Source: Candidatus Binatia bacterium (lineage in GTDB: Bacteria; Desulfobacterota; Binatia; UBA9968; CAXXLF01). From it: a stretch of DNA of 64,000 bases. The translations under genes and the position numbers were made by a program. This document shows, in pieces, positions 4,040 to 24,945 of this stretch. How positions within the stretch are numbered: the first letter of the stretch is position 1; each line of letters begins with the position of its first letter. The stretch is from contig CAXXLF010000002.1 in assembly GCA_963664015.2 (NCBI GenBank), positions 672,001 to 736,000 of the forward strand. Reading direction: 5' to 3'. The notes beneath the pieces were generated by a model. That model did no database searches, was not told the origin of the DNA, and saw only the letters and a list, made by a program, of their open reading frames with translations.

Positions 4040-4057
4040 CAGCGCGAGGAATCAAGT

Positions 4058-4096
4058 TATATCGACCACGGGGTTTGAATCCCCGTGGTCGATATA
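4058..4096. repeat. 16-bp perfect inverted repeat (REP-like hairpin or bidirectional terminator) between convergent genes
   Basis: TATATCGACCACGGGG-tttgaat-CCCCGTGGTCGATATA. Confidence 0.75.
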
Positions 4097-4186
4097 TATT
4101 AGCAAAGGGGAAAGTTGCCGCTTCTCCCCTTTGTAAACCCCTAGACTTTGTGCCCGCCTCAAGATGCGGGGTTGACCTCGCATCTA

Positions 4187-5032
4187 CTATTTTTTCTTGC
4201 CGGCGACGGGGATCTCGAGCCTGCCGATGCCATCGATCTCCGCGACCATCCGGTCGCCGGGGTGGATCTCACCCACGCCCGGGGGCGAACCCGTAGAGAT
4301 CAGGTCCCCAGGATTAAGCGTCATCACGTTGGAAGCGTAAGCAATAATAGCGGGTATCTTCACCAGCATATCGCCGGTATTAGCATCCTGCCTCAGATCT
4401 CCGTTGACCCACAGCTTTACGCTCAACCCGTGGGGGTCTTTGATCTCGTCGGCGGTCACCATACACGGCCCCAAGGGAGTAAAGCCGTCGTATGATTTAC
4501 GTCTCGACCGGTCCCCCTTTCCCCGGAGGGTCACATCGATAGCGATGGTGTATCCGAGGACATGATCCATCGCTTCCGATTCGGGAATGTTCTTGCCGCC
4601 CTTCCCTATGACAACAGCCAGTTCGGACTCGTGGTGAATCTCCCCAGTGACATCCGGCAGGCTGAGGGTATCTCCCGGACCGATAATGGAGCTCGGCGCC
4701 TTGAGAAAGACATCGAAGTCAAGCAACCAACTATCAGGCGCCCCCCGATCCCTCATCTCGTCAACATGGCTTCCATAATTTGATGCTGCTGCGAGAACCT
4801 TGGTGGGATTCAGGACGGGGGAACGAAGTCGAACCCTGTCAAGAGGTCGGGACTCCCCTTTTTGAACTGCGGCATCGATCTTGGGTCTGACTTTTTCGAA
4901 GTTACTGCATAGCCGCGCCCAGAAGTTTGCCGCATATCCATTCTGATGCTGGGGCACGACGCTCGTCACATCACAAAAACCTTGCTCCGTTAACACTCCC
5001 ACACGGTTGTCGTCAAATAGTACAATTTTCAT
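4187..5032 (-). CDS. Fumarylacetoacetate hydrolase family protein
   Basis: FLKAPSSIIGP, HHESELAVVIG, YTIAIDVTLR, RKSYDGFTPLGP, LNPGDLISTGSP. Confidence 0.93.
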   Translation of the reverse strand: MKIVLFDDNRVGVLTEQGFCDVTSVVPQHQNGYAANFWARLCSNFEKVRPKIDAAVQKGESRPLDRVRLRSPVLNPTKVLAAASNYGSHVDEMRDRGAPDSWLLDFDVFLKAPSSIIGPGDTLSLPDVTGEIHHESELAVVIGKGGKNIPESEAMDHVLGYTIAIDVTLRGKGDRSRRKSYDGFTPLGPCMVTADEIKDPHGLSVKLWVNGDLRQDANTGDMLVKIPAIIAYASNVMTLNPGDLISTGSPPGVGEIHPGDRMVAEIDGIGRLEIPVAGKKK

Positions 5033-5153
5033 AACGGATCGGACTCTACCAAGGGGAATGTCCAATATCAAGGCAGCAAAAGATCTATCACTTGCAGTGG
5101 ACCGGAAACATCTGAAGGCCTAAATTATGGCTCGAAATCCACAGGGAAGCCCG

Positions 5154-7190: not shown

Positions 7191-7566
7191 ACTAGAATAC
7201 CCTGATTCCCCCTTTCAGGGGAAGAAAAAAACAATTGACCGTGCCTCTCAAGACATCAGGCAAATAGCAAGCAGATCGCCGTTTCAAGCATGCGTAAAAA
7301 AGCTGATACCAACACGCGAGAGTTGGCAGCCAGCTCTATACTGTTCCTATTGATTAACAGCCTATCTTTCCTGCCTTTCGATTTTTCTTAGTTGACGGCT
7401 GATCGTTAATTAGCGCTATGCGCTTTACTGCTGATCTCAGCTCTCAACACCCAGTCCTGATTAGCTGATAGCTATGTGTAAAAGGTCGACTGACGCCTAT
7501 TCCAGCGCCTGGACATTACCTCCTTGCTTATGTATAAGCGGGTGGATACTCGTCAGGGGGGGCGGC

Positions 7567-8286
7567 ATGGATCGGTTAACGAAGGAATTCAAGGAACAGC
7601 TCCTCAGCCTCATTGCTTCCTTTGGTAAGAAGCCGGACCTCCGGGTGCTTTGTGAGGAAAAGGGTCTGACCCGCGAGGGTGGCAAACGCCTGATTTTGGA
7701 GAGAAACGGGTTCAACCGGAGCTGGCCCCGCTGGCTCGGCGGGGTAGTTTCCAATTGCCCTCATAAAGAAGTCAATCTATACCTCATCTCTAACATGTAC
7801 GAAGAGGGGGTGATCGACCCAAGGGTCGGAACGGACCATAACGAACTCCACATGCGACTGGGCGAAGCACTCAGTCTCACACGCAAGCAGATCAATGATT
7901 ACGAGGCCAGCCCTACAACGGTAGCGGCAACGAGCTATTGGGAAAATGTGTACCGCACCAGGCCTTGGCTTGAAGAATTTACGGCTTTGGTGTGTCTCGA
8001 AATACGGACCAGCAAGAGGGCCATGGGGCCCCACTTTCAACCTAAACGAGTGAGATCAAGCGAAGCCTGGGCAAAATTAGGAATTGAAGTAGGGGCCTTA
8101 AAAACATCCACCAACCACGAGGCCGCCGACGAAGACCACGGCGGCGAGGCCCTTACCCTCCTTTCAAAATACGCAGATACGGAAGAGAAACAGAGAATCG
8201 TCCTTCGTATGACCCGGGAGAGTCTAACCGTCGAGCGCATGTTTAAAGACAACATAGGAAGAATGATGATGGCATGCGGAGAATGA
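7567..8286 (+). CDS. Heme-oxygenase-like diiron oxidase (CADD/PqqC/TenA-like iron-containing redox enzyme)
   Basis: NMYEE..DHNEL, CLE and HEAADEDHG match the E-H-E-H-D-H ligand set of CADD-type proteins. Confidence 0.75.
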   Translation: MDRLTKEFKEQLLSLIASFGKKPDLRVLCEEKGLTREGGKRLILERNGFNRSWPRWLGGVVSNCPHKEVNLYLISNMYEEGVIDPRVGTDHNELHMRLGEALSLTRKQINDYEASPTTVAATSYWENVYRTRPWLEEFTALVCLEIRTSKRAMGPHFQPKRVRSSEAWAKLGIEVGALKTSTNHEAADEDHGGEALTLLSKYADTEEKQRIVLRMTRESLTVERMFKDNIGRMMMACGE

Positions 8287-11102: not shown

Positions 11103-11957
11103 CTAGCTCCCCGGCTGGACCGGATCGCCGATCAGCTCGAGATAGACGCTACCAAACCACAACTTGCTGGTGGCCTTGAGTAGGAATCTTTTAGGATCAC
11201 TGGATATCCAGATTATCCCTTCTCTAGCCTTTACTTCACTGGCCTTGCCGTCGTCCCCCGGGGAAACCTGTTTAATCAATGCGGCATTGATCCGGTAGGC
11301 GTCGAATTTCCCGGAGTTCAACTCTATTTTTTCCTGGCCGGCAATGTGAATGGTCAAGAGATAACGATTATTTCCACCAAACAGGTTTATTTCGAACCGG
11401 TCTTCGATTTCGATGTCGAGGCTTCGAAGGAGATAGCTAGCAGAAACCGGATCAAAACTATAGGGCCATACAATCTCTCGTTCTTTGATCTTCTTCCCTT
11501 TTGTCTTGCGGACCAGCCACTTCTGGTTTTTTCGATCATACGAGGCCCTGGTTTCTGACCGTCTCCCGTTTTCCTTTTGATTGAAGACGTAGTGGTGCGG
11601 CATAAACGTCTTAGCATCGAATACGGACTCGATTGAGTCCCGCATTTTCCATATGAGGTCTAGAGCGATCCAGGTTTTGGCCTTGATCTTGACTTCATAG
11701 AGTTTCTCACCCTCTACCCAGATGGGACGGGTCCGAATCTTCGCGGTGGCCACAGGGATACCGTTCCAGCCCGCCTCGTACTGCGCGCTTTCACCTCCTT
11801 CGAACGGATAGAACCGGGGTTGATGCTTTCGACTCCCATTGGAAGATGCACCCGTTGAACCCGCGTCGTATGGGATCGTCAGGCAGATAAACAACAGTGA
11901 TAAGTTTATAATGAACCGTTGCATGCTACGAAAAATCACCCTGTTCCAAAACAACAA
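11103..11957 (-). CDS. DUF3108-domain exported beta-rich protein
   Basis: Signal/TM N-terminus, GESAQYEAGWNGIPVA, FDPVSASYLLRS, IWISSD..LLKA..KLWFGSV. Confidence 0.75.
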   Translation of the reverse strand: MLFWNRVIFRSMQRFIINLSLLFICLTIPYDAGSTGASSNGSRKHQPRFYPFEGGESAQYEAGWNGIPVATAKIRTRPIWVEGEKLYEVKIKAKTWIALDLIWKMRDSIESVFDAKTFMPHHYVFNQKENGRRSETRASYDRKNQKWLVRKTKGKKIKEREIVWPYSFDPVSASYLLRSLDIEIEDRFEINLFGGNNRYLLTIHIAGQEKIELNSGKFDAYRINAALIKQVSPGDDGKASEVKAREGIIWISSDPKRFLLKATSKLWFGSVYLELIGDPVQPGS

Positions 11958-12287
11958 AGTTCAGTGAACAAGTCCCTATGCCCCCTTCTCTGCACACCTG
12001 GTTTACGGATATTTTACCATGAATGGATCTGGGTAATCAAAGTAGCCGATGTCCGATTTGTTCTCCTATCGGTAACCCAGAGGGAGCTGCACCCCGACGA
12101 CGAACCTCCAACCACTAACTGGGCATTGTACGATTGCATCATTTTATCTAGGACTTGTTGGCCTTGCGTATTCTCGGCGCAGCCCCGTACCAGGCGCTAG
12201 GTTCAGTTGGAATGTTTATCTAAGGTCCTAAACCACTAGTGAAACTGGTCGATCGGATCGTTCTCCATGACAGACCATAAGTGTGTA

Positions 12288-12310
12288 ATTTGGTAATTGT
12301 TGCACCAAAT
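12288..12310. promoter_or_regulatory. Candidate upstream activator (bEBP) palindrome
   Basis: ATTTGGT-N9-ACCAAAT, overlapping an NtrC-like half site TGCACCA, 60-80 bp upstream of the sigma54 motif. Confidence 0.4.
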
Positions 12311-12351
12311 CGGAAGTTTTTCATTTCTCCGAAAAGGCAGCAATCCTGCAA

Positions 12352-12364
12352 AATCAATGGGTTA
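12352..12364 (+). promoter_or_regulatory. IHF binding site
   Basis: AATCAATGGGTTA matches WATCAANNNNTTR exactly and lies between the UAS and the sigma54 motif. Confidence 0.55.
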
Positions 12365-12369
12365 ACGCC

Positions 12370-12385
12370 TGGCCCCTCTTTTGCA
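12370..12385 (+). promoter_or_regulatory. Sigma54 (-24/-12) promoter
   Basis: TGGCccctcttTTGCA with exact GG-N10-GC spacing. Confidence 0.6.
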
Positions 12386-12456
12386 ATTAGGTCATCTTTA
12401 CCTTCCAGTCAAGATTTTTGGGAATTTAAAAGGGAAAAGGAGGTCGCAAGAGGATC

Positions 12457-12621
12457 ATGAGTCTCGATGGAATCCTTCTTGATCGCCAAGCGCTCATAAA
12501 CCGTGTTCGTACGCTCGAGGAAATCGTCGAACGAAGCGGCCTATGGGAATGCGAGTGCTGTGGTACCGTATACGCCGGTTGCCACCCGCAACCAGGTCTA
12601 CAGAGCAAGATCTACAAATGA
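12457..12621 (+). CDS. Small 54-aa Cys-rich protein (not in the ORF track)
   Basis: AGGAGG/AGAGGA RBS and sigma54 promoter upstream. Sequence MSLDGILLDRQALINRVRTLEEIVERSGLWECECCGTVYAGCHPQPGLQSKIYK. Confidence 0.55.
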   Translation: MSLDGILLDRQALINRVRTLEEIVERSGLWECECCGTVYAGCHPQPGLQSKIYK

Positions 12622-12689
12622 GGTGGGGAATGCAACAAACGGGCTCACCCCCGATAGCCACAATGGGCTAATGTTGTAAGATCGCCCGT

Positions 12690-13685
12690 TTACCCTTGAA
12701 ACTCTTCCCGGTATAACCCGAAGGGTTCATATAGGGGTCGGTCCGACATAAAGAAGAGGCACGCCTCCTCATCCAGGGATCGGTTCTCGTGCCGATGCCA
12801 GGTCCAATTGGGGATCACCAAGTAGTCCCCCTTCTCCCACTCCAACACCTCATCGTTAACGACCGTTCTACCGCGGCCTCGAACTACGTGAAAAATCCCC
12901 GAGGAAGTGTGGCGGCGATTCTTGCCCCTCTCCCCCTGACGCAGGAGATGCAGGCCGCAGCTCATGGTTGGCAATGTAGGGGCACCCCCCTGTCCCGTAT
13001 AATCCATGATTAGGTCACCGCTCGATTCTCCCGATCGTTCTGCCATCTGCCGCAAGCGCTTCTCGCTTTCCTGCCACTTGTAGTACCAGCGGGCCCCGCC
13101 GTCATGCCTTTTCCCATCGTCTGATTTTTTCCACTCTCGTTGGACCGTCTGCTGCGGCTTTTCATGATCCTCGATAAACATCACATCCATCGCCTGCGAG
13201 AAGGGAACATCCAGGCCGTCAATCCATATCATGGGGCCGTCGGACTTGTTGATATGATCGTGCCAGGTCCAGTTGGGCGTGAGGACAAGATCGCCGGGCT
13301 CCATCAGGAAACTCTCTCCATTGACGGTGGTGAAGGTGTCCTTGCCTTCAACGACGAAACGGATGGCGGCCATGGTATGACGATGTGCTGTGGCGACTTC
13401 GCCGGGAAGAACCATTTGGACCGACATCTGCAGAGTATGGGTTGTAAATTTCTTTGGAGCCATACCGGGATTAACGAGCTGGATGGTTCTTCGGCCGGCT
13501 TCGGCCACACCGATGAGATCACCCGCCCGCATTAGAGTGTCGCGAATGACCGACCCCTTCCAAAGCATGGGCTTCAGCTTGGAGCGCGGCTCCATGTTTG
13601 CCGGGAGCCCCATCTTCCAGTGTCCTTGGATGGAGTACTTTTGAATTTCCTGATCAAAATTTTCGAGCTCTTCAGCCTTGGACAT
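12690..13685 (-). CDS. Gentisate 1,2-dioxygenase-like bicupin
   Basis: RRTIQLVNPG, AHRHTMAAIRF, LTPNWTWHDH, WIDGLDVP; RBS GGAGGT. Confidence 0.85.
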   Translation of the reverse strand: MSKAEELENFDQEIQKYSIQGHWKMGLPANMEPRSKLKPMLWKGSVIRDTLMRAGDLIGVAEAGRRTIQLVNPGMAPKKFTTHTLQMSVQMVLPGEVATAHRHTMAAIRFVVEGKDTFTTVNGESFLMEPGDLVLTPNWTWHDHINKSDGPMIWIDGLDVPFSQAMDVMFIEDHEKPQQTVQREWKKSDDGKRHDGGARWYYKWQESEKRLRQMAERSGESSGDLIMDYTGQGGAPTLPTMSCGLHLLRQGERGKNRRHTSSGIFHVVRGRGRTVVNDEVLEWEKGDYLVIPNWTWHRHENRSLDEEACLFFMSDRPLYEPFGLYREEFQG

Positions 13686-13819
13686 AGAAATGCTACCTCC
13701 ATTTATGGCACCGTAAAGAAACAACTAAATCAAGCAATATCACCGCGGCCCCCATTGGGTCAAGATACCCGCCCAATGGGGCTCCCCTCTCGATGGTCTC
13801 TGCTAGAAGGTGGATCCGT

Positions 13820-14524
13820 CTACCTTTTACTTTCGTTAACCTTCGCCTCGTAATAAGCCCAGGTCCGTTCGAACAGGCCTGCGGGACGGTCGTTCTGCAC
13901 CGCAAGGTTTTCCAGCTCATGCTTGAAGTCGGCGAGCTCATCTTCCGCATACGCCTTGGCGCCGCCCGCCAGGCCGGCCAGGAGCTGTATTTTGGCGGCC
14001 TCTTCCATCATGACGGCCTTCACCGTAGCCTCCTCCAGGCTGGAGCCAGCCACCGAACCGCCATGCCCCTTCATCAATACCGCCGTCTCCTTTCCCATCA
14101 GACTCGTCATCTCCTCCCCCCGCTTCCTCGAGTTAATCAAGCCCGCCTTCTTGTAGACCTTGCTACCGGCGAACGGGAAGCCGAACACGGTACCCGGGAG
14201 AAACGTAGCCTCAGCCGTAGCCAGTGAAGTGACGTACAGGGAGTGGGTATGGACGATCCCCTGGACTTCCGGACGTGACTGGTAAATGCAGATGTGGATC
14301 CAGGTCTCGCCGTGCCACTTGCCCTTGCCTTCGAGAACCTTCCCGTTGAAGTCCACCACCAGGAGGTCCTCGTTTGTCACCAGGCCAGGCGCGATGGCCC
14401 GTGATATCAGAAGCCGGTCAGTGCCTGGGGCCCGAACGCTCACGTGACCGAAAGGAACCGTCAGGCCCGTCTTGTCCAGGATCCGGTTTGCCATTACGAG
14501 TTTTTCAATTAGCTCATTGCTCAT
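13820..14524 (-). CDS. Class II aldolase/adducin family protein
   Basis: FGHVSVR, ETWIH..IY..RPEVQGIVHTHS, LMKGHG. Confidence 0.9.
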   Translation of the reverse strand: MSNELIEKLVMANRILDKTGLTVPFGHVSVRAPGTDRLLISRAIAPGLVTNEDLLVVDFNGKVLEGKGKWHGETWIHICIYQSRPEVQGIVHTHSLYVTSLATAEATFLPGTVFGFPFAGSKVYKKAGLINSRKRGEEMTSLMGKETAVLMKGHGGSVAGSSLEEATVKAVMMEEAAKIQLLAGLAGGAKAYAEDELADFKHELENLAVQNDRPAGLFERTWAYYEAKVNESKR

Positions 14525-14576
14525 GCCATCGTCCTTCAATTGGGGAGGAAACGTCGTGATGTTGTAACCTATTCGC

Positions 14577-15170
14577 CTAACGGCCAACCCTTTTCGGATA
14601 ATCAGGATGACGCAGCAAATTTTCGATAAAGGTCTCCTTCATCGCACGGCCATGGAGCCGCCGTGAATCCACTTCCACACGCGCTTTTCCCGGCTCGATC
14701 TTGAGCACGAAAAAGCTTAGCCCCCCGTCAGCCAGCGACTTTGGCACGACGCGTTTGAATTCGTCCTCGGTGCGGATGGTCCCGGTTACGGGGATTCCGG
14801 CTCCCTTTGCGATCGCTTCGAGATCGGCGTGGGTAGCCGTCGCCGTGGGTCCCATGTCAGCGTACGATTGATTGTCCATAACGAGTGCCAGGAGGTTGGG
14901 AGGGTTGACACCGGCTACAGTCACAAGGCTGCTCGTATCCAAGAGGAGACTGCCGTCCGAGTCGATAGCGACAACCTTTCGCTTGGGGTAGGCAAGGGAC
15001 AAGCCCAAAGCAAAGGAAAGACACATTCCCAGGTTGAGGCTGTGAAAATTGGCACCCTTGGGCCGCAGATAAGCCCACTCCCTTGCGTTGGGTCCTCGAG
15101 CTGTTACGGTGATCGCGTGTTCGTCCAGCCAGGAAGCAAGCAACGTGAGACAGTCGTAGCGGTTTACCAT
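14577..15170 (-). CDS. ThDP-dependent decarboxylase beta subunit (ComE/phosphonopyruvate decarboxylase-like)
   Basis: IDSDGSLLL...MDNQSY ThDP-binding motif; overlaps the stop of the alpha subunit. Confidence 0.82.
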   Translation of the reverse strand: MVNRYDCLTLLASWLDEHAITVTARGPNAREWAYLRPKGANFHSLNLGMCLSFALGLSLAYPKRKVVAIDSDGSLLLDTSSLVTVAGVNPPNLLALVMDNQSYADMGPTATATHADLEAIAKGAGIPVTGTIRTEDEFKRVVPKSLADGGLSFFVLKIEPGKARVEVDSRRLHGRAMKETFIENLLRHPDYPKRVGR

Positions 15171-15676
15171 AGGACATCTCCGGTTAAGAGTAGGACCAAC
15201 GGAGTGCTGTAACCCTGGCACGCAGCGTGGGCATCCAGCAGCTTGCGTTTGAGTTTCTCTTTTTCCTCCACGATCCGATAAGGGATCTTCAACGCACTCA
15301 GCACTGGCTCACCCACCTGATTGAACATATTGAGCTGATCGCCGGAGATACCGCTGCGATCGCTGACGTCCCCACGATAGGAGGCGAGAATGAAGACCGG
15401 GATACCATAAAGCACCCCCATCTGAGCGAGGGCCCAGCTTCCGACCAACAGTCCCGCAATACCCGTAATAAAAACGCAATTGCGCCCCCCCAGGGACGCT
15501 CCCGCGCACAGGCTTATGCCATGCCCTTCCCCTGTAACCGTTACGGCGGTAAAGAATGGGTCCTGGCGAATTTGCTCAGTCAACGGGTAAGTCGGATCCT
15601 CCGGCAACGTAACCACCAGATCGATATTCTTTTCCTTTAATGTTTCGATAATAACGCCAACCATGTCTTTATCCAT
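15164..15676 (-). CDS. ThDP-dependent decarboxylase alpha subunit (ComD-like)
   Basis: VVTLPED, GEGHGISLCAGASLGG, YGIPVFILASYRGD. Confidence 0.82.
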   Translation of the reverse strand: MDKDMVGVIIETLKEKNIDLVVTLPEDPTYPLTEQIRQDPFFTAVTVTGEGHGISLCAGASLGGRNCVFITGIAGLLVGSWALAQMGVLYGIPVFILASYRGDVSDRSGISGDQLNMFNQVGEPVLSALKIPYRIVEEKEKLKRKLLDAHAACQGYSTPLVLLLTGDVLW

Positions 15677-15738
15677 CTTTTTTTCTCTTTTCTCCGAGCT
15701 TGGCGTCCTTTGCACCTTTCCCCCGACTTTGCTCGGAA

Positions 15739-15757
15739 CCCTGAGCCTGTCGAAGGG
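15739..15757. repeat. Short REP-like element CCCTGAGCCTGTCGAAGGG
   Basis: Recognisable dispersed intergenic repeat motif; single copy in this window. Confidence 0.45.
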
Positions 15758-15800
15758 TGCGCGAATCATCTATTTCCGGGTACGTAATCAATATCTTCCC

Positions 15801-16361
15801 CTAGGGATTGGTTAGCTCTTTGGGCTTGAGGGCCCTGCGCTGAATCTCCGAACCGTTGAGGTTAACCACCGAGAACACGGGTGTAGGCCGCATGAGCGTG
15901 TCTACAGCCCGGCACTCCCTCTCGGCAAATTCCACGAGCGCTACTATTTTCTCCTTGGGTTCGGGACTATCAATGAAGGTCTCTAAGGTTATGTCGGAAA
16001 AGCCACAGGGGAATTCGGCCTTCTTAGACAACGAGCGATAGTCAAGACGACCTTTGATTACGGTGCGAGCAGAGCTGATAGCGATATCCAGTAGCGACGA
16101 AGCCGTCGCTATTTGACTGTGCAGTCAAAAAGCGGCGCCGAGCAGAAAATACTCCAGCGGCCCCGGCGCGGTGTCGGTTCCACCGTGACCGCGCTTCTGC
16201 TCGTCCGCATAGATCTCAAAGTGCCGGATCTTGCCCCGCTTACGATAGTTCTCCACAATCTCGACCTCGGCCGCTACCACCTGGTCCACCGGCTGCCTCG
16301 CCTTGGTCAACTCTTTAGATATTTCCACTCGGCCTTCACGGAGACGCTTTCGATCGATCAT
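15801..16361 (-). CDS. OsmC/Ohr-family protein, probable selenoprotein (in-frame UGA = codon 79; 186 aa)
   Basis: ADEQ..HGGTDTAPGPLEYFLLGAAF-TGA-LHSQIA reads in frame into AERECRAVDTL. The TGA (16127-16125) is at the first conserved Cys, and a SECIS-like hairpin follows. Confidence 0.85.
16088..16119 (-). promoter_or_regulatory. Bacterial SECIS-like stem-loop
   Basis: UAGCGACG-GCUU-CGUCGCUA starts 13 nt after the UGA. The loop begins with G about 21 nt from the UGA, and a CAG/CUG lower stem is possible. Confidence 0.7.
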
Positions 16362-16681
16362 CACTTCCCTCCGTCTGTTTCCAAGAAGAGCGCCGCTAGG
16401 CGACTGTTTTCCAAGTCCACATTGATGATCAGTCGTGAGGGAACTGAAGGGGCGACGGCTGCGGCAACGTACACGGGCCAACCCTCTCCCTCTCCAACCC
16501 AAACGTACCCCACTGGGGGCACTTCCCTCTCTTCCACCAGGATCACTTCAAAGCCAACGGCGCAGCATTCCTCACACTCATTTTCGAACACGACCAGGGC
16601 CGCGTCCTCAATAGGATCTGCTGCGAGGGCACCGACCAGCTCTTCTTTCGCCTGGCGGCCGATCTCAATTTCCATTTCCAT
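16361..16681 (-). CDS. Small acidic protein with CxxCC motif, HesB/IscA-like pattern
   Basis: 106 aa, IEIGRQAKEEL..ECEECCAVGFEVILV..PVYV. Starts 4 nt after the upstream stop and has a TGATG overlap with osmC. Confidence 0.6.
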   Translation of the reverse strand: MEMEIEIGRQAKEELVGALAADPIEDAALVVFENECEECCAVGFEVILVEEREVPPVGYVWVGEGEGWPVYVAAAVAPSVPSRLIINVDLENSRLAALFLETDGGK

Positions 16682-16685
16682 AGGG

Positions 16686-17414
16686 TTAATCCAATCCGTC
16701 GAACAATTTTGGATCCACTCCACACGCAATCCGCATGCAATGGTCTTCGAGGATGTGAAACGTCCTTTTGAATTGAACCGCCTTTCGCACCCCTTCCTGC
16801 TGCACTTCTGTGACCGCATACTTTTTAACGAGGTCCCGTGTGGACGAACCGTGGTCGATGTCCATTTCCGAGTGAAGGGTAAAATGGACCAGGCCCCAGT
16901 CCGGTACATCGTAGTGCTTGGCCAGGGCCTCGGCCATTTTCATCCCGTGTCCCCCGGTCCCTGTCCCCGAGTCTTCGTCGAAGCTCATGGAAGCCCCTTC
17001 CAACCAGGAATGGTCCCTGGCGTAGTTGACCCACGAGTCACAGACCAATCGATAGGCGTTGTGGAGATCCCGATAACTCTCCAGTTCGTCCCGCGGGATA
17101 CCGAGCCCCTCTGCCAGTTTGGCCCATAGCTCCGAGTGGGCCCCCACGGTCCCACCCATCACCCGACTGTCCTCTTCCTCGATGTACTTTGTAATGCGCT
17201 CCATGCGTACTTCTTTGATAGAACAGTTAGCCAAGATGTAGAGTTCCTTGCGCGGTACGTTGACCCGGTAATAGTAAAGCTGCTTAACCCACATCTTTAC
17301 CTGCTCCTTGGTAAGCCTACCGTACTGGATCAACAGGCGGGTGGGCCGTTCCACCCGGTAGGCCTGCCGTCCTTTCATGAGATTCTGGATCAATTCTTCG
17401 GGCGGCTGCAACAT
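16686..17414 (-). CDS. PqqC/CADD-like heme-oxygenase-fold iron-containing redox enzyme
   Basis: LTKEQVKMWVKQLYYY..PRKE.YILANC, EEED..AHSELW and HSEMDIDHG. AGGAG RBS before ATG 17414. Confidence 0.8.
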   Translation of the reverse strand: MLQPPEELIQNLMKGRQAYRVERPTRLLIQYGRLTKEQVKMWVKQLYYYRVNVPRKELYILANCSIKEVRMERITKYIEEEDSRVMGGTVGAHSELWAKLAEGLGIPRDELESYRDLHNAYRLVCDSWVNYARDHSWLEGASMSFDEDSGTGTGGHGMKMAEALAKHYDVPDWGLVHFTLHSEMDIDHGSSTRDLVKKYAVTEVQQEGVRKAVQFKRTFHILEDHCMRIACGVDPKLFDGLD

Positions 17415-17436
17415 AACGTCATCTCCTATTTCCGTC

Positions 17437-18867
17437 TTAATCAAAAAGGCCTTTCCATTTCTGCATTACCTTTTCCCGTTCCTCGTCGCTCGACTGAACG
17501 ACCCGGGGGAAATCCTGAATCCAGTCGAAGGGCCGGCAGGCGTCGATCACGGCCCGGGAACCGAAGGAGATCTTTTCAGGCTTGGGGTAAATGGGATCCA
17601 AAGGACCGGTATAGGTGTTGCGGAGAATATCGATATCCTTTTCCGGATTGGAACGGGTGCTGATGGCCCAGATGACCTGATCCAAATCGCTGGGATCGAT
17701 GTCGTCATCGACCACGACCACATACCTTCCCATGGAAGTCCCTCCTGCCCGGCATTGGCATACCATGAAACCGGCTTGCCGTGCGTGACCGGGATAGCGC
17801 TGTTTGATCGAGACAACTGTGAAGAAGTTGATGCCCGACACCTCGTGATACCAGACCCCTTTGACATCCGGGATGCCGTCTTTCTTCAGCGAATCTTTCA
17901 CGTTCGCAGATTTCATCGCCGACATAAAATAGGAATAGTCGTGAGGTGGGCGCGCCGGCATGGCGCCAAGAATGATGGGATCGTTCCGGTGGTAGAGAGC
18001 CTTGACCTGAATCACCGGTTCCTTCTCCCTGCCCGACGCGTAGTATCCCGTATACTCACCGTAGGGTCCTTCGTCTCTCCGTTCATCGGGCGGCGAAAAC
18101 CCTTCGATAGAAAACTCACTACCGGCGGGAATGGGCAGACCCGTAATCTCACCGGGGATCACCGGGACGGGCTTCCCGAAAATAGCCCCGACGAACTGGT
18201 ACTCGGATATACTGTAGGGGACACTCATCGCTGCAAGCACGTGATAGAGCGGATGGTGTCCGAAGGATACGGCAATGGGCGCCGCTTCGCCCCGAGCATG
18301 ATACTTTTTGACGTTTAGCGCACCATGGTGAGCGGAAGAGATATGGAGTGCCAGGGTCTTCTCATCGTGGAGCATCAAACGGTAGGCCCCCAGGTTGATC
18401 ACCCCCGTATCCGGATCCCGAGTGATAACGACACAACCCGTACCCAAATATTTCCCGCCGTCATACTCGTGCCACTTGGGAGCCGGGAACTTGAGCAGAT
18501 TGACGTCGTTACCGAAAAACCGGTTTTCCATCACGGCACCGTCGGAAACCTCCTCCGGTGCGAATTCACCCGAACGCCTTTCCCAATCGATCACCTTTCC
18601 CTCCAGGCGCGACACAAGCTCTTGGTCCGTAGTGATATCGCGGTACCCTAGGGTGAGCCCCAGCCTTTGGGCATCCAGAATAGCGCCGGTAACGATCCGG
18701 TATCCCTTGTCATGGCCCTTGATGTTGTCAAAGATGAATGCGGGCCCCCTGCGCTTGCAGTTGACTTCGGCCAGTATCCCGAGCTCCAGGTGGGGATCGG
18801 CGCCGTCAACGACCTTGAGTTTTCCTATTCCCTCGACTTCTTTAAGCCAGCTTCTCAGATCCTCCAT
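17437..18867 (-). CDS. UbiD-family prFMN-dependent (de)carboxylase #1
   Basis: DGGKYLGT, NLGAYRL, EGPYGEYTGYY, VVVVDDDIDP, IDACRP. Confidence 0.95.
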   Translation of the reverse strand: MEDLRSWLKEVEGIGKLKVVDGADPHLELGILAEVNCKRRGPAFIFDNIKGHDKGYRIVTGAILDAQRLGLTLGYRDITTDQELVSRLEGKVIDWERRSGEFAPEEVSDGAVMENRFFGNDVNLLKFPAPKWHEYDGGKYLGTGCVVITRDPDTGVINLGAYRLMLHDEKTLALHISSAHHGALNVKKYHARGEAAPIAVSFGHHPLYHVLAAMSVPYSISEYQFVGAIFGKPVPVIPGEITGLPIPAGSEFSIEGFSPPDERRDEGPYGEYTGYYASGREKEPVIQVKALYHRNDPIILGAMPARPPHDYSYFMSAMKSANVKDSLKKDGIPDVKGVWYHEVSGINFFTVVSIKQRYPGHARQAGFMVCQCRAGGTSMGRYVVVVDDDIDPSDLDQVIWAISTRSNPEKDIDILRNTYTGPLDPIYPKPEKISFGSRAVIDACRPFDWIQDFPRVVQSSDEEREKVMQKWKGLFD

Positions 18868-18966
18868 CGGTTTTCCCCTTTATATCAAAATTTCTATTTT
18901 CTTAGCCCAATAGCTCGAACGCAAAACACCACAGTCAACTAAAGATAAGGTCAGGACAAACACGGC

Positions 18967-19869
18967 TTACTTGTCGTACTGCCGGGGATCAAAAACATCC
19001 CGTAGGCCATCGCCAAGCAAGTTGAAGCCCAAAATGGTCATGGAGATGGCGAGACCGGGGATGAGGGCCACGTGGGGTCCAAGTTCCATGTAACCCCGTG
19101 CCTCGTTGAGCATGAGTCCCCAGCTGGGAGCGGGAGGGGCAAATCCCAACCCGAGAAAACTCAGGGAGGACTCGGTGATGATGGCATGGGCGCAGTCAAG
19201 CGTTATCAGGACCAGTAAGGAACCGATGCAATTGGGAAGGATCTGAAAGAAAAGGATCCTAAACTCGGATTCACCCGTCATGCGAGCGGCTTCGACGTAT
19301 TCTTTCTCTTTTTGTGAGAGAACTACGCCTCGAACCACCCGGGCATAGCCGGGGATCGAGGTAATGCCAATGGCCAGCCACAGTGTCAAGAAGTTTGCGC
19401 CCATGGCAGCAACTAGGGCAATGGCCAGGAGACGTCCCGGAAAGGCGAGAACCGCATCGATAAACCGCATGATGAGCATGTCCACTCGTCCACCCATATA
19501 ACCTGAGAATGCTCCCAATGGAACACCGATGAGAATGGCCAGGAGAACGGCTCCCATGGCCACCTGCATCGCGATGCGAGTGCCCAGGATAACCCGGGTA
19601 TAGATATCCCGTCCGAACACATCGGTACCGAACAGGTGCTGAGCCGAAGGAGGCGATAGGCGGTCGATTATGTTCATTTGATAAGGGTCTTGAGTAATAA
19701 TGAGATCGGCGCCGAGAGTCACAAACACGACCAATGTGATCAAAAGAAGCCCTACGGTAGCAAGGCGGTTGCGTAGGATAACCCGTAGACCGCTGCTGAC
19801 CTTTTCTAATAACTCTCGAAATCTTACCGAAGAGGTGGGCGCAATGATATTCCCTGTTGTGTTAGCCAT
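18967..19869 (-). CDS. Peptide/nickel ABC transporter permease (DppC-like)
   Basis: HLFGTDVFGRD, EYVEAARMTG, ESSLSFLGLG, NLLGDGLRD. Confidence 0.93.
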   Translation of the reverse strand: MANTTGNIIAPTSSVRFRELLEKVSSGLRVILRNRLATVGLLLITLVVFVTLGADLIITQDPYQMNIIDRLSPPSAQHLFGTDVFGRDIYTRVILGTRIAMQVAMGAVLLAILIGVPLGAFSGYMGGRVDMLIMRFIDAVLAFPGRLLAIALVAAMGANFLTLWLAIGITSIPGYARVVRGVVLSQKEKEYVEAARMTGESEFRILFFQILPNCIGSLLVLITLDCAHAIITESSLSFLGLGFAPPAPSWGLMLNEARGYMELGPHVALIPGLAISMTILGFNLLGDGLRDVFDPRQYDK

Positions 19870-19870
19870 T

Positions 19871-20824
19871 TTACTCCATTTGGATTCTCGGATCGAGCCA
19901 ATGGTAAATGACATCAACAATCAAGTTCACAAAGACATAGGTGAACGCCAGGAAGAGGACGGATCCTTGGAGAAGAGGATAGTCTCTGGCGTAGATAGCC
20001 TCCAGAACCAAAAGGGCCAAGCCGGGCCAGGAAAAAACCGTCTCTACTATAGTCGACCCACCAAAAAGTCGCCCCACTTGCAATCCGATGGCCGTTGTTG
20101 CCGCCACCAGAGAGTTTTTCAGAACATGTCGGGAAACAATTGCTCGAGGCGGTAAACCTTTCGCCTTGGCCGTTCGCACGTAATCCAACCTAAGCTGTTC
20201 CAACATCTCAGCCCTGACGAATCGCGTAATGCTGGAGGCCATAGCGGTTCCGAGCACGATGGCGGGAAGGATCAAGTGCCAGAGGAACTGGATAAAATTC
20301 ACGGAGGGATCCACGTATCCCATGGTGGGAAAGACTCTCCAGTACAGGCCAAAAAAAAGGATAAGCAAGAGGGCAAGCCAGAAATTAGGGACCGAAATAC
20401 CGAACAGGGCAAACCCCATAGCCGAATAGTCCAGGGGAGTATTCTGCTTCACCGCGGCGATAACGCCGGCAGGGATGGAGATCAGGATTCCCACGATAAA
20501 GGCACTGAATGCCAGGTAAATTGTTGCGGGATACCGGGCCTTGACCATGTCCCAGACAGGCTCACCAGTCTGCATGGACTGCCCCAAATTCCCCTGCAAG
20601 ACGTTGCCCATCCAACGCACATATTGGATATAGATGGGGGCGTCTAGTCCCAGCTGTTTTCGGAGCGCGTCGTAGAGCTCCTGACTGGCCGCAGCATCGT
20701 CCTCCCCGAGCATGACCTCAACCGGGTCGCCGGGGATTAGATGGATGATTAGAAAAACAAAGATGGAAACGAAGAAAAGGACCGGGACGAGCTGTAACAG
20801 TCGCTTTAGTATGTACTTGCCCAA
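19871..20824 (-). CDS. Peptide/nickel ABC transporter permease (DppB-like)
   Basis: IPGDP, GNLGQS, DYVRTAKAKGL, ETVFSWPGL, RDYP, LDPRI. Confidence 0.93.
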   Translation of the reverse strand: MGKYILKRLLQLVPVLFFVSIFVFLIIHLIPGDPVEVMLGEDDAAASQELYDALRKQLGLDAPIYIQYVRWMGNVLQGNLGQSMQTGEPVWDMVKARYPATIYLAFSAFIVGILISIPAGVIAAVKQNTPLDYSAMGFALFGISVPNFWLALLLILFFGLYWRVFPTMGYVDPSVNFIQFLWHLILPAIVLGTAMASSITRFVRAEMLEQLRLDYVRTAKAKGLPPRAIVSRHVLKNSLVAATTAIGLQVGRLFGGSTIVETVFSWPGLALLVLEAIYARDYPLLQGSVLFLAFTYVFVNLIVDVIYHWLDPRIQME

Positions 20825-20861
20825 ACGATCCTCTTCTCCGTAGGATTGGTTGTTCTCTAAT

Positions 20862-22448
20862 CTACTTGGCCAGCCACGTCCGTGAGAGCCCGCCCGTGGT
20901 CAGGTTAAAACGGGCCCCGTCGTCAGTGGTGAAACCCCGGACCTTCTTGTTGAACACGAAGTAGCGCGGCACAATGACCAGTGGGATTTCCGGCAGGTCG
21001 CTGTGGACCAGGCGGATGGCCTTATCGTAGAGCTTGAAACGCTCTTTCTTGTCGCTGGTTTGACTCGCCTTATCCGTCAGCTGGTCAAACTCTGGATTGC
21101 AGTATCCCGAGTAATTCAGGATGCGTTTTTTTCTCTTGCCTTCGAGGCATGAAAATCGAAACGGATACGCGTCGGCAGGGTCTTTGACGACCTCCGCCCC
21201 ACTGAAGCCCAACATGAAGTTTCCCGAGCGACGCATCCGTGAAATTTTGCCGCCGGTGAGGAATTCAAGCTTAACATTGAATCCGGCGCTGGTAAGTTGG
21301 CGTTCAATCACCTGCATCATGGGCTCCTCACCCTTACGGGCTATTAACTCGATCTCGAAGTTCGGGTCCACTCCGGATTCTTTGACCAACGCCTTCGATT
21401 TGGCGACGTCTCTCTTTATTTCCGGGAGACCAATGTGCCAGGGGCTGGTGTCGGGAATCGCCCACACGGTGGCCGGCACACCGTAGCCCCAATAGGCCGC
21501 GGTGATCAACTCTCTCATGTCCAAGGCGTAACGAACCGCATGGCGCAGCTTGGGATTATTGAACGGCGGTTTCGTCACCTCGAAAATGAGCCGGCGAAAG
21601 CCCGAATACTCGGCCTCGGCGATGCCCAGGTTGGGATAGTCTCCATCCGTTATTTTCTTAATAAAGGCATAAGGCGCCCTCTCGATGAGGTCCAGATCGC
21701 CCGCACGCACCGAGGTGAAACGGGCCTGCGTATCCCGTGCCGGTTTTAATATCAGCTCGTCGAGATAGGGGAGCCCTTTTTGCCAGTAGTTCTTGTTACG
21801 AACCAGGGTCACATGCCTTGCCCGTTTATAGTTTTTGAAGACAAAGGGACCTGTTCCCGGTGGAAACCCTATTATTCTTTTCTTAGCCTTGACTAGTTTC
21901 TTCAATCGTTGATTACTTCCAGTGGCGACCGATCCTTCAGGGACCACGACGAAGGGGCGAATCGAAGCCATGATGTTAAGAAAAATCGGGTCGACACCCT
22001 TCAACTTGAAATCGACGATGAGGTTGCCCCTCGCCGTCACGGATTCCACATTGCGCAACAGGGACAACCCTGTGGCCGCGTTTTTCGGATTCATCGCATA
22101 TTCGGCGCTCCATTTCACGTCCTGAGCGGTCATATTCTTGCCGTTATGAAACTTGACGCCGCTGCGGAGCTTAAAGGTATAGGTTTTGCCGTCGGAAGAG
22201 ATCTGCCACGCCTCGGCCAAGGCCGGAACAGGTTTTCCTTTAAGATCGAAATCCAGCAGGCCCTCAAACATTAACTGCCGCACGTAAGAGTCCGTCGACT
22301 GGGTTCTCCAGAAGGGGTTGAGTGAAGAGAGGTCCTTACGGATACCAAAGATGAGACGCCCGCCATACTGAGGCGTGTCGGCAGCCCATAGGGACCCAGT
22401 GATCATAAAGAGTCCCAAAATTAACGCTAATGTTCGTAACTGTTTCAT
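20862..22448 (-). CDS. Peptide/nickel ABC transporter substrate-binding protein (family 5)
   Basis: Signal peptide, PALAEAW..S.DGKTYTFKLR.GVKFHNG, GTGPF, NYWQKGLPYLD. Confidence 0.93.
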   Translation of the reverse strand: MKQLRTLALILGLFMITGSLWAADTPQYGGRLIFGIRKDLSSLNPFWRTQSTDSYVRQLMFEGLLDFDLKGKPVPALAEAWQISSDGKTYTFKLRSGVKFHNGKNMTAQDVKWSAEYAMNPKNAATGLSLLRNVESVTARGNLIVDFKLKGVDPIFLNIMASIRPFVVVPEGSVATGSNQRLKKLVKAKKRIIGFPPGTGPFVFKNYKRARHVTLVRNKNYWQKGLPYLDELILKPARDTQARFTSVRAGDLDLIERAPYAFIKKITDGDYPNLGIAEAEYSGFRRLIFEVTKPPFNNPKLRHAVRYALDMRELITAAYWGYGVPATVWAIPDTSPWHIGLPEIKRDVAKSKALVKESGVDPNFEIELIARKGEEPMMQVIERQLTSAGFNVKLEFLTGGKISRMRRSGNFMLGFSGAEVVKDPADAYPFRFSCLEGKRKKRILNYSGYCNPEFDQLTDKASQTSDKKERFKLYDKAIRLVHSDLPEIPLVIVPRYFVFNKKVRGFTTDDGARFNLTTGGLSRTWLAK

Positions 22449-22596
22449 GCAGTCCTCCTCTAAATTTATACAGAATCCAAAACCTTGACAGGGCTTTCTT
22501 AATTACCAATTCCACTCTACTCTGTCAACCGCGATTCCAGTACCATTCCAAAGCCCGAACTCATCAGAATCAAAAGATTATCTAGTGCGTATTCAC

Positions 22597-22626
22597 TTGA
22601 ATTTTCGAGCGCTGCCACCGTATAGT
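22597..22626 (+). promoter_or_regulatory. Candidate sigma70 promoter for the Mo-hydroxylase gene
   Basis: TTGAAT-N18-TATAGT. Confidence 0.4.
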
Positions 22627-22683
22627 GCAGGGCAGAGCAGGATCCGAATCTAGAGATCCGAATTGAAAGTTGCCGTGGAATCA

Positions 22684-24945
22684 ATGAAGGAAAAAAGAGC
22701 CAGGCCTCAAGCCGACCTGATTCGAGTCGATGCAGTCGACAAGGTCTCCGGGACCGCGTGTTACGCGGCGGATGTTCCCCTTCCGGGCCTGCTGGTAGGG
22801 GCTATGCTGCGCAGCACCATTCCCCATGGGCTCATCACTTCTATGGATGTCTCCAAGGCGCGGGAGATTCCCGGTGTCCACGGGGTTCTGACGGCTCAGG
22901 ACGTTCCCGATCTACGTGTCGGAAAGGGCTTACAGGACATTCCTCTTTTGGCACAGGAGCGGGTGCGGTTTGTCGGTGAAAGGATCGCTGCCATCGCCGC
23001 CGAATCTAGGGAGATCGCCGAAGAGGCGATCCACGCCATTAAAGTCGAGTACGCAGACCTCCCCACGGTCTGTGACGTCGAGAAGGCTCTCAGGCCCGAT
23101 GCCCCCATCATTCACCCTGAGCGCGCCACCTATAAACCCGCCGAAGGCCGTGAATGGCCCGAGTTCCCATCCGAGCCGAACGCAAATTCCCGGGTACTTT
23201 ATAAAAAGGGAAACTTCGAAGACGGCTTTTCGACCGCGGCCAGGGTTTTTGAGGACGTCTTCACTCTGCCCATGCAGCACCACGCCTTCATCGAACCCCA
23301 TTGCTGCACCGTCGCCGTCGATAACGGCGGCGGCGATGCGGAAAAGGTCCGAGTCTGGACCTCCATCAAGCAGCCTTTCTCCATGCGGGACTGGCTTGCA
23401 TCCGCCACGGGAGTTCCATCCGAGCGCATCGTCATCCTGCCCACCCAGATCGGCGGCGACTTCGGGGGCAAGGCCTTTCTATGGGACGAAGCGCTTGCCT
23501 ATTTTCTCGCCCGTGCCAGCGGCCGGCCCATCCGCATGGTAACGAGCCAGAACGAGGAGTTTGTGGCCGGCATCCACCGTCACGCCGCCGTGATTCGCAT
23601 CAAGAGCGGCCTGGACTCCCAGAACAACCTGACAGCACGTGAGGTTCGCATCCTATTTAACAACGGCGCCTACGCGGGCTACCGCCCCCACCCGACCATC
23701 GGTGGCTCTGCCCAAGCGGCTGGCTGCTACCGCATCCCTCACGTTCGCATTACGAGTACTCACGTCTACACCAATCAGGGCCCCTGTGGTCATATGCGCG
23801 GACCCGGTGAGCCTCAGGTCGGCTTCGCCGTGGAGTCCCACACCGACATGATCGCCCGGCGACTCGGGATGGATCCCGTGAAGTTCCGTCGCCAAACCGT
23901 CATGCGGGACGGCGACGAAGGCCCCCTAGGAAAGGTCTGGCATTCGGTTACGGCAGGCGAAATGGTGACAAGAGCGGCAACCGCGCTCCATTGGGATAAG
24001 CCGAAGAAACAGAACACCGGTCGAGGATTCGCCGTTAACGAGCGGGCTACGGGGAGGGGCAAGGCCGCCGTAGCTCTCGAGATCGACGCCGAAGGGCAAA
24101 TTTTGATCCGCACAGGTCTCGCGGAAATCGGCACCGGGGCCCACACCATGCTCAGGCAAGTGCTCGCCACTGCCTTCAAGATCGATCCCGCGGAGATTTC
24201 CGTGGTTCAGGGCGATACCGACAAGGGACCCTACGACCAGGGCGCCAACGCCAGCAAAGTGACCAACACCACGGGGGGCGCCGTTCTACTGGCCGCAAAG
24301 GATACACTGCCGCGCATCTTTGCCGCTGCCGCGGAGTTGAAGGGCTGGCCGGTCGGCGCCATCAGCGTGGAGCGGGGCCGAATCGTCTGCAAGGGCCGGC
24401 CAGGGTCCGTAACCTTTAAAGTAGCGGCAATTCGATTGGCGAAAACGAGCGGCGGCCGCTTCCGCCAGGACGCAGAACTATCATCGGAGCGCGGGGATTC
24501 GTTCGGCTACGCCTGCCAAGGAGTAGAAGTGACGGTAGACCGTGAGACCGGAAGGATTCGAATCAACCGCATCGTGGCCATCCAGGACGTGGGCTACGCC
24601 ATCAACCGCCAGGCCCTTACGAGCCAGATCGCCGGGGCCATCGGCATGGGGCTTGGCATGGCGCTGAGGGAAGAAATGCGCTACGACAACGGCTACCTTC
24701 AGGCGGTCAACTTCGGCGCGTACAAGATTTCCTGCGTCGCTGACATCCCGCCCACGACCTTTGAATTGATCGAGAACGGTGATGGCCCGGGTCCCTTTGG
24801 CGCCAAGGGTGTGGGGGAGATCGCTGCAGTGCCTATCATGGCGGCCATCGCCAATGCCGTCGAAGACGCCATAGGAGTGCGGATAACCGACTTACCGATC
24901 ACGGCAGAGAAGGTTCTGGGCGCACTCAACGGGCGGAAAAATTGA
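22684..24945 (+). CDS. Xanthine dehydrogenase-family molybdopterin-binding large subunit #1
   Basis: DKVSGTACYAAD, HAFIEPH, GGDFGGK, MRGPG, EIGTG, GPFGAKGVGE, ITDLPITAEKV. The start is either 22663 or 22684. Confidence 0.93.
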   Translation: MKEKRARPQADLIRVDAVDKVSGTACYAADVPLPGLLVGAMLRSTIPHGLITSMDVSKAREIPGVHGVLTAQDVPDLRVGKGLQDIPLLAQERVRFVGERIAAIAAESREIAEEAIHAIKVEYADLPTVCDVEKALRPDAPIIHPERATYKPAEGREWPEFPSEPNANSRVLYKKGNFEDGFSTAARVFEDVFTLPMQHHAFIEPHCCTVAVDNGGGDAEKVRVWTSIKQPFSMRDWLASATGVPSERIVILPTQIGGDFGGKAFLWDEALAYFLARASGRPIRMVTSQNEEFVAGIHRHAAVIRIKSGLDSQNNLTAREVRILFNNGAYAGYRPHPTIGGSAQAAGCYRIPHVRITSTHVYTNQGPCGHMRGPGEPQVGFAVESHTDMIARRLGMDPVKFRRQTVMRDGDEGPLGKVWHSVTAGEMVTRAATALHWDKPKKQNTGRGFAVNERATGRGKAAVALEIDAEGQILIRTGLAEIGTGAHTMLRQVLATAFKIDPAEISVVQGDTDKGPYDQGANASKVTNTTGGAVLLAAKDTLPRIFAAAAELKGWPVGAISVERGRIVCKGRPGSVTFKVAAIRLAKTSGGRFRQDAELSSERGDSFGYACQGVEVTVDRETGRIRINRIVAIQDVGYAINRQALTSQIAGAIGMGLGMALREEMRYDNGYLQAVNFGAYKISCVADIPPTTFELIENGDGPGPFGAKGVGEIAAVPIMAAIANAVEDAIGVRITDLPITAEKVLGALNGRKN

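Follow-up and report, generated by a model that had tools for sequence, protein, structure and literature searches.

Does a TGA codon in the middle of an otherwise open OsmC-family gene end the protein, or does it encode selenocysteine (Sec)? The question is raised by a gene in the window analysed here, a stretch of 64,000 nucleotides at positions 672001-736000 of contig C2 in the 3.51-Mb two-contig genome (G000) of a Candidatus Binatia bacterium. The gene, on the minus strand at 15801..16361, comprises 186 codons followed by TAG and carries TGA at codon 79. Using a combination of profile searches, comparative sequence analysis and RNA folding, our work here shows, at the level of sequence, UGA79 to be a predicted Sec codon that is decoded in frame at the column of the catalytic Cys, in a Sec-competent organism and ahead of a suitably positioned, conserved hairpin. 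Taken as a whole, we judge it very probable that the locus encodes a Sec-decoded OsmC-family protein with putative peroxidase chemistry, and that its gene is a constant part of a conserved operon, putatively for aromatic acids.

The gene forms a single minus-strand frame of 186 residues, with TGA translated as U, running from the ATG at 16361-16359 to the TAG at 15803-15801, and the sole stop within this frame is the TGA at 16127-16125. Two mechanically called open reading frames (ORFs), 16125..16502 and 15801..16031, share the frame and are separated by 31 open codons. A common frame, a lone TGA at codon 79, open intervening codons and a product of 186 residues bear out the proposal of a preliminary description of this DNA that the two ORF fragments are one gene. 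A GGAGG Shine-Dalgarno motif stands upstream of the ATG at 16361, and start codon and motif are the same in the orthologs described below. The residues around Sec79 read GPLEYFLLGAAF-U-LHSQ (LGAAF-U-LHSQ). In OsmC/Ohr proteins, the first conserved Cys is peroxidatic and the second, some 60-70 residues further along, resolving. The UGA codon (16125..16127, minus strand) falls in the column of the first, and the codon of Cys150 (15912..15914, minus strand; in ERECRAVDTL) falls in the column of the second, 71 residues further on, which supports the earlier view of Cys150 as the second redox position and makes it a candidate resolving cysteine.

Family assignment of the read-through protein agrees with this arrangement. 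It matches the Pfam OsmC family (PF02566) at 42.2 bits (cut-off 27.5), with residues 61-162 spanning profile positions 1-97 of 100, and the NCBIfam model NF041052, 'OsmC-related (seleno)protein' (OsmC_like_Se), at 116.1 bits (cut-off 95); in a six-frame search of the genome with NF041052 the window copy scores 107.6 bits. A profile built from a 26-row alignment (A3), in which the U/C column is invariant, matches solved OsmC/Ohr chains (among them 1vla, 6mjn, 1n2f and 1usp), with 22-58 bits for the named OsmC/Ohr chains as against 132 bits for the uncharacterised 2opl. As sequence columns only, R46 and E70 (P-L-E) occupy plausibly homologous columns of A3 with respect to the catalytic Arg and Glu. 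On each point of membership testable here, the gene is a predicted OsmC-like selenoprotein.

The TGA itself is not peculiar to one assembly. Over 15700-16700, contigs from two runs of two studies (X1 and X3) show no difference from the window, so that two assemblies agree on the codon, which the preliminary description had wished to see confirmed in raw reads, with the reservation that either assembly may be the window's source. Because either run may be that source, we take the orthologs as the independent support for the TGA.

Just past the codon lies a hairpin resembling a selenocysteine insertion sequence (SECIS) element, at 16092..16111 on the minus strand. It reads UAGCGACG-GCUU-CGUCGCUA from 16111 to 16092 and consists of an 8-bp stem (16111-16104 with 16099-16092) closed by the apical loop GCUU (16103-16100); counted from the TGA, the stem starts at 13 nt and the loop at 21 nt. 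The bSECISearch criteria place the apical loop roughly 16-37 nt from the UGA. The distance to the loop seen here, 21 nt, lies within this range, and the loop has a G in its first two positions, as in bacterial SECIS elements. The 8-bp stem with a G-initiated loop downstream of the TGA is therefore present as first described, and the preliminary description of the sequence is confirmed as correct in all particulars.

Two further lines of evidence argue that this hairpin is more than a chance fold. The first is statistical: the 42 nt from the UGA fold at -16.0 kcal/mol (z = -3.1), with 1 of 200 shuffles equally stable, and a hairpin with a stem of at least 7 bp, a G within the first two loop bases and a start 9-17 nt past the triplet follows just 1235 (0.62%) of 200000 positions drawn at random from the genome and 715 (0.64%) of its 111939 TGA triplets. 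The second is conservation. The hairpin is kept in all three readable orthologs (L054, L055 and L056) and is present in the minimum-free-energy fold of each of nine sequences. Of the 12 codons that span it (codons 80-91), 7 show no change at the third position, as against 35 of the 173 codons elsewhere (Fisher p = 0.006), and such synonymous-site conservation across the hairpin is the pattern expected of an RNA structure overlaid on a coding sequence. Rfam returned no match in the window at gathering thresholds.

The genome encodes the machinery to which such a signal would speak. A tRNA-Sec gene (74.2 bits; called tRNA-SeC with anticodon tca by ARAGORN) is accompanied by selA (606 bits), selB (409 bits) and selD (373 bits), all above their family cut-offs and all within C2:1.306-1.323 Mb, so that the check for Sec machinery urged by the preliminary description comes out in favour of Sec; selD (C2:1311134-1312057) has one in-frame TGA of its own. 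These findings bear on the possibility that UGA79 is read as Cys, Trp or Gly without selenium, through near-cognate or reassigned decoding. Such an outcome has a precedent of sorts, since in some organisms the Sec pathway can insert Cys at UGA under selenium limitation, but among the 1535 stop-to-stop frames that are 300 codons or longer TGA is the commonest stop, closing 563 of them, and is therefore not reassigned in this genome. Moreover, a full Sec apparatus is present and a positioned hairpin follows every such TGA in the family. We consider decoding without selenium very unlikely and favour Sec at UGA79. Apart from the OsmC-type genes, a crude scan of the genome for TGA codons with a hairpin and open flanks gave 65 candidates, of which about ten look plausible and about seven lie in redox motifs typical of selenoproteins (GHUWPYC; two DsbA-like UxxC; three GSxTU(G/P)PF; WUPVC), for example at C1:255223, C1:677100, C1:940512, C2:588044, C2:1194093, C2:1218299 and C2:2107627, and the source organism appears to be rich in selenoproteins.

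Orthologs reveal how the gene has been maintained on both sides of the TGA. A metagenome scan recovered four loci (L054-L057); L057 contains masked bases and was left out of the readable orthologs, and the other three all carry TGA as codon 79. They share 78-82% of their residues with the window copy on the N-terminal side of the TGA and 79-83% on the C-terminal side. Past the TGA, the ratio of non-synonymous to synonymous substitution rates (dN/dS) lies at 0.07-0.11, and dS is saturated (1-2.5). A scan of genome contigs with P0001 returned one distant relative only, at 30% identity. Among proteins, a word-indexed search of 5.8 billion sequences gave a single near-full-length match (P0002) from 94 candidates and, when limited to shorter proteins, 39 matches; 22 of these, taken from their size (mostly 78 aa) to be N-terminal pieces, were aligned, and every one stops at residue F78, directly before the TGA. 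The one longer match, P0002 (114 aa, from a 1247-base ENA contig), has the look of a fusion: it begins with about 60 residues unlike the window protein, which may resemble a class II aldolase, continues with the OsmC-Sec sequence from about residue 28 to 78 and ends in ...GAAF; it could represent a rearranged locus or a chimeric assembly.

With these data in hand, we can ask whether the gene is simply dead, that is, an OsmC-family gene killed by a nonsense TGA at its catalytic Cys codon. A single base change would turn TGC or TGT into TGA, and gene callers do split the gene, but the TGA persists in three of three readable orthologs at saturated dS and directly follows 22 of 22 N-terminal fragments, purifying selection continues past it at the dN/dS given above, and four paralogs in the genome share the position of the TGA and have a hairpin behind it. 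In our view there is practically no chance that the gene is a pseudogene.

The same comparison speaks to a split gene, in which translation would end at UGA79, an internal start codon (the TTG at 16031, for example) would give rise to a second, C-terminal chain, and the two pieces would then assemble. Mechanical ORFs do lie on either side of the TGA, and some callers report C-terminal ORFs of 86-100 aa. These called fragments (86, 92 and 100 aa; 73-84% identity), however, begin at different places, and a split product would lose the catalytic residue and its helix. The 31 codons that lie outside both ORF fragments, before the first downstream start, have 26-29 of 31 residues identical among the orthologs, with synonymous changes outnumbering non-synonymous ones; we conclude from this pattern that they are translated in frame, and regard a split gene as extremely unlikely. 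One continuous, Sec-containing polypeptide is thus the reading that we carry forward. Public gene calls of it are fragments only (78 aa or 86-100 aa), and any name given to them is 'hypothetical protein'. The earlier designation of a 'hidden' selenoprotein consequently holds for the gene, which the calls break into fragments, but not for its class, which is itself known through NF041052 and a 2005 report.

If Sec79 stands in for a catalytic Cys, homologs would be expected to carry one or the other residue at this column. A search with NF041052 of 401 genomes of the phylum found 33 loci, those of the window's own genome included, of which the 32 with a phmmer match were aligned. The U79 column holds TGA in six loci (the window copy and five others), and every homolog without TGA has Cys there (26 of 26), which is the TGA/Cys alternation at codon 79 that the preliminary description had named as a check. 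The C150 column holds Cys in most loci and Ser in one subgroup. Scores above the NF041052 cut-off occur in four genomes, namely G000, G291 and G036 (TGA) and G381 (no TGA).

In the window's genome alone there are four NF041052-type genes, and a lone TGA interrupts each of them. The three further OsmC-like Sec paralogs lie at C2:1336549-1336971 on the minus strand (L020), C1:76098-76526 on the plus strand (L021) and C2:1596931-1597344 on the minus strand (L023), and the TGA of all four copies occupies one alignment column, just after G-x-A-(F/G). The window copy is only 27-35% identical to the other three; three of the four copies score above the cut-off, and it is the lowest of these. Each copy has a hairpin with a G-first loop 12-14 nt past its TGA; in three of the four the stem is at least 7 bp long and starts 12-13 nt past the TGA, and in the remaining copy it has 5 bp plus an extension. 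The four stems are unrelated in sequence (AUUUCCC, CUGACGCG, UAGCGACG and UACCA), and the paralog loops are GGUACG, GUA (or GGUAC) and GUU. Paralog hairpins were compared by positional statistics and per-sequence folds; the ungapped MAFFT alignment (A5) sets the stems out of register. Together, the NF041052 match, the Sec machinery, the TGA/Cys alternation and the conserved hairpin support the original suggestion that the gene is translated with Sec.

What, then, is a selenoprotein of this kind doing at this locus? The OsmC-Sec gene lies in a co-directional series on the minus strand, in the order ABC (ATP-binding cassette) importer, UbiD, PqqC-like protein, a 106-aa protein, OsmC-Sec, thiamine pyrophosphate (TPP)-dependent decarboxylase, aldolase-fold protein and bicupin. 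The importer is of the Opp/Dpp/Nik type, with two permeases and a substrate-binding protein (18967..22448). It is followed by a decarboxylase of the UbiD family, which uses prenylated flavin mononucleotide (prFMN), at 17437..18867, and a PqqC/TenA-like iron-containing redox enzyme at 16686..17444. On the far side of the OsmC-Sec gene stand the alpha and beta subunits of a split TPP-dependent decarboxylase resembling sulfopyruvate and phosphonopyruvate decarboxylases (14577..15769), a class II aldolase/adducin-fold protein (13820..14587) whose relatives include aromatic dicarboxylate decarboxylases and a gentisate 1,2-dioxygenase-like bicupin that scores below the equivalog cut-off (12690..13724). 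In tblastn searches the cluster core recurs in the metagenome loci at 75-88% identity: UbiD, the small protein (here called the CC protein) and OsmC-Sec are present in four of four loci, three of the four have the aldolase-fold protein, and three have the bicupin; L056 is without the PqqC-like gene, and the TPP subunits are found in L055 only. The catabolic-operon setting noted in the preliminary description is thus real and conserved among the metagenome loci. A scan of 11900-23000 for promoters and terminators gave counts at chance level and is uninformative on the operon boundaries.

Family relationships of the neighbours hint at the substrate. Among solved sequences the window UbiD is nearest to PhdA, with 321 bits for 7pda and 185 for the next match, and NCBIfam places it no closer than the general UbiD subfamily. 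UbiX is encoded outside the cluster, at C2:1280431. The neighbours of the aldolase-fold protein in the PDB and NCBIfam include 3,4-dihydroxyphthalate decarboxylase and Mlr6791 (chain 2z7b), the latter a decarboxylase of a hydroxypyridine dicarboxylate. From these family names, none of them at equivalog level, the cluster appears to serve the oxygen-dependent breakdown of an aromatic or N-heteroaromatic compound that bears a carboxyl group.

Some features of the surroundings deserve mention in their own right. A repeat of about 60 nt at 15700-15765 recurs eight more times in the genome in partial form (86-96% identity) and also occurs at several assembly contig ends; because it overlaps the start of the ORF, the 5' end of the TPP alpha-subunit gene (ATG at 15769) is uncertain. 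A second PqqC/TenA-like 'iron-containing redox enzyme' gene lies on the plus strand at 7474-8286, about 8 kb from the operon, and a gene for a xanthine-dehydrogenase/aldehyde-oxidase-type molybdopterin subunit (22663-24945, plus strand) is divergent from the operon's transporter end; either could belong to the same catabolic neighbourhood. In L055, a second, distant UbiD paralog (3670-5106; 29% identical) sits directly upstream of the conserved UbiD gene.

The gene immediately upstream of OsmC-Sec encodes the orphan CC protein of 106 residues (16681-16364, minus strand), whose TGA stop overlaps the OsmC ATG as TGATG. At the same junction there is an ATGA overlap in L054 and the near-identical L057, and there are gaps of 37 and 56 nt in L055 and L056; the two genes are thus translationally coupled in the window, in L054 and in its near-duplicate L057, and the CC-protein gene is directly upstream of the OsmC gene in all four metagenome loci. 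The vicinal pair Cys39-Cys40 is invariant in four CC-protein orthologs. An exhaustive search with a hidden Markov model, run over 1.84 billion cluster representatives, found only 13 CC-protein matches at E up to 0.001; the 12 that cover the site comprise ten with CC, a near-identical variant with CY and a single LC form. The protein has no Pfam or NCBIfam match at E up to 10, only chance ARF matches among PDB sequences (E at least 0.07), no paralog in its own genome and none in the 400 other genomes of the phylum, where a match in G002 at E = 0.0085 was taken as chance. A relationship to IscA/HesB was tried and rejected, hhalign of alignment A4 against the genome's two PF01521 proteins giving probabilities of 1.5% and 0.1%. 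From gene order alone, our guess is that the CC protein may be a thiol partner of OsmC-Sec.

The comparative evidence indicates that SelB and tRNA-Sec decode UGA79 as Sec, directed by the putative SECIS hairpin 13 nt downstream. For the chemistry we propose the following cycle, by analogy with the OsmC/Ohr family. Sec79, in place of the peroxidatic Cys, would attack a hydroperoxide or other oxidised substrate and be converted to the selenenic acid. Cys150 would then resolve this intermediate to a selenenylsulfide, from which a thiol donor would re-reduce the enzyme. The surroundings of the other paralogs are of interest here: paralog 1 has a thioredoxin gene with tetratricopeptide repeats (thioredoxin-TPR) downstream and a flanking hemerythrin gene, paralog 2 has glutathione S-transferase (GST) and aldo-keto reductase genes upstream, and paralog 4 lies between a major facilitator superfamily (MFS) transporter gene and a dienelactone hydrolase gene. 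Thiol-redox genes beside two of the three other paralogs make a thiol partner plausible for the OsmC-Sec family. In the operon, the most likely task of OsmC-Sec would be the removal of peroxides arising from the oxygenase and oxidase steps, or from redox-cycling intermediates.

A bolder version can be drawn from the same cluster, in which OsmC-Sec and the CC protein form a dedicated selenium-sulfur redox couple that is integral to an undescribed pathway for a carboxylated, redox-cycling N-heteroaromatic compound (phenazine-like or resembling pyrroloquinoline quinone, PQQ), reducing a hydroperoxide or quinone of that pathway rather than acting as a general stress peroxidase, with the subgroup obligately dependent on Sec. 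We think it unlikely that all of this is right, and prefer the simpler account of a Sec-decoded OsmC-family protein, probably with peroxidase chemistry, that belongs to the conserved operon.

Several observations weigh against even this simpler account. The case for Sec insertion is comparative, made at the level of sequence, and on the RNA side one metatranscriptome contig matches the gene, at 15954-16086 only; it falls short of the TGA and may be DNA carry-over. The putative peroxidase activity and the roles suggested for Sec79 and Cys150 are drawn from the OsmC/Ohr family. Within that chemistry, the Glu of the P.E motif is E70 in the window copy but Ala or Gly in the three paralogs, so that the chemistry of the family may differ from that of classical OsmC/Ohr enzymes. 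As to the hairpin, its loop is GCUU (GCCU in L056) and has no GU dinucleotide, which all three paralogs do have in theirs; among the orthologs the hairpin shows conservation and not covariation; and comparison with shuffled sequences gives weak z-scores of -0.83 for L055, -1.10 for paralog 1 and -0.79 for L024. No Cys-form ortholog of the window subgroup appeared in the word-indexed search of 5.8 billion proteins, within the sensitivity of a word index, and the Sec/Cys alternation is one at the level of the family only. Finally, the near-identical CC-protein variant P0044 (106 aa) has E-C-Y-G where the window has E-C-C-A, which argues against an essential vicinal dithiol and suggests that the second Cys may be dispensable.

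The immediate gain is one of annotation, as the gene is known publicly only as unnamed or 'hypothetical protein' fragments, and its repair adds a divergent, apparently Sec-only subgroup to a catalogued selenoprotein family. With four paralogs and several other candidate selenoproteins, the source organism is a good one in which to ask why Sec is used over Cys in OsmC-type enzymes. The conserved operon, which ties the predicted selenoprotein to what looks like oxygen-dependent catabolism of aromatic acids, is a modest lead, and the orphan CC-motif family, with its 13 cluster representatives in 1.84 billion proteins, is a second. Nothing here will surprise a selenoprotein specialist. Two points may nevertheless be new: the apparently Sec-only subgroup whose gene calls are fragments only, and the conserved cluster with UbiD and an orphan CC protein.

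Comparison with known systems places the gene more closely. 7PDA is PhdA, described in the available excerpts as the phenazine-1-carboxylate decarboxylase of Mycobacterium fortuitum (PMC10850782); the window UbiD is nearest to it among solved sequences without being an equivalog, and our literature search yielded no paper pairing a PhdA-like UbiD cluster with an OsmC selenoprotein. Like the Cys-based OsmC/Ohr organic hydroperoxide reductases, the window protein has redox residues at the peroxidatic and resolving columns; in contrast to them it would carry Sec for the peroxidatic Cys, and the match between the two is distant. As the preliminary description had held, OsmC-like selenoproteins are a known class: the window protein passes the curated NF041052 model, and the family was reported in 2005 from Sargasso Sea data, where the available portions of the text give it as COG1765 with a UxxT motif (PMC1088965). 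It recurs in reviews of 2022 and 2026, likewise as far as their available portions go, and this literature, to the same extent, contains no characterised member and makes no mention of a catabolic operon such as the one that houses the window copy. The published UxxT motif is present in the genome's paralog 1 (ULLT), whereas the window copy has U-L-H-S (UxxS) and further differs from the family in having about 30 additional, conserved residues at its N-terminus. Shared with that family are membership of the OsmC fold group, a predicted Sec at the first conserved Cys, a SECIS-like hairpin directly downstream and a score above the cut-off, and the window copy is, as judged from these features, a further, divergent member of a selenoprotein family known since 2005.

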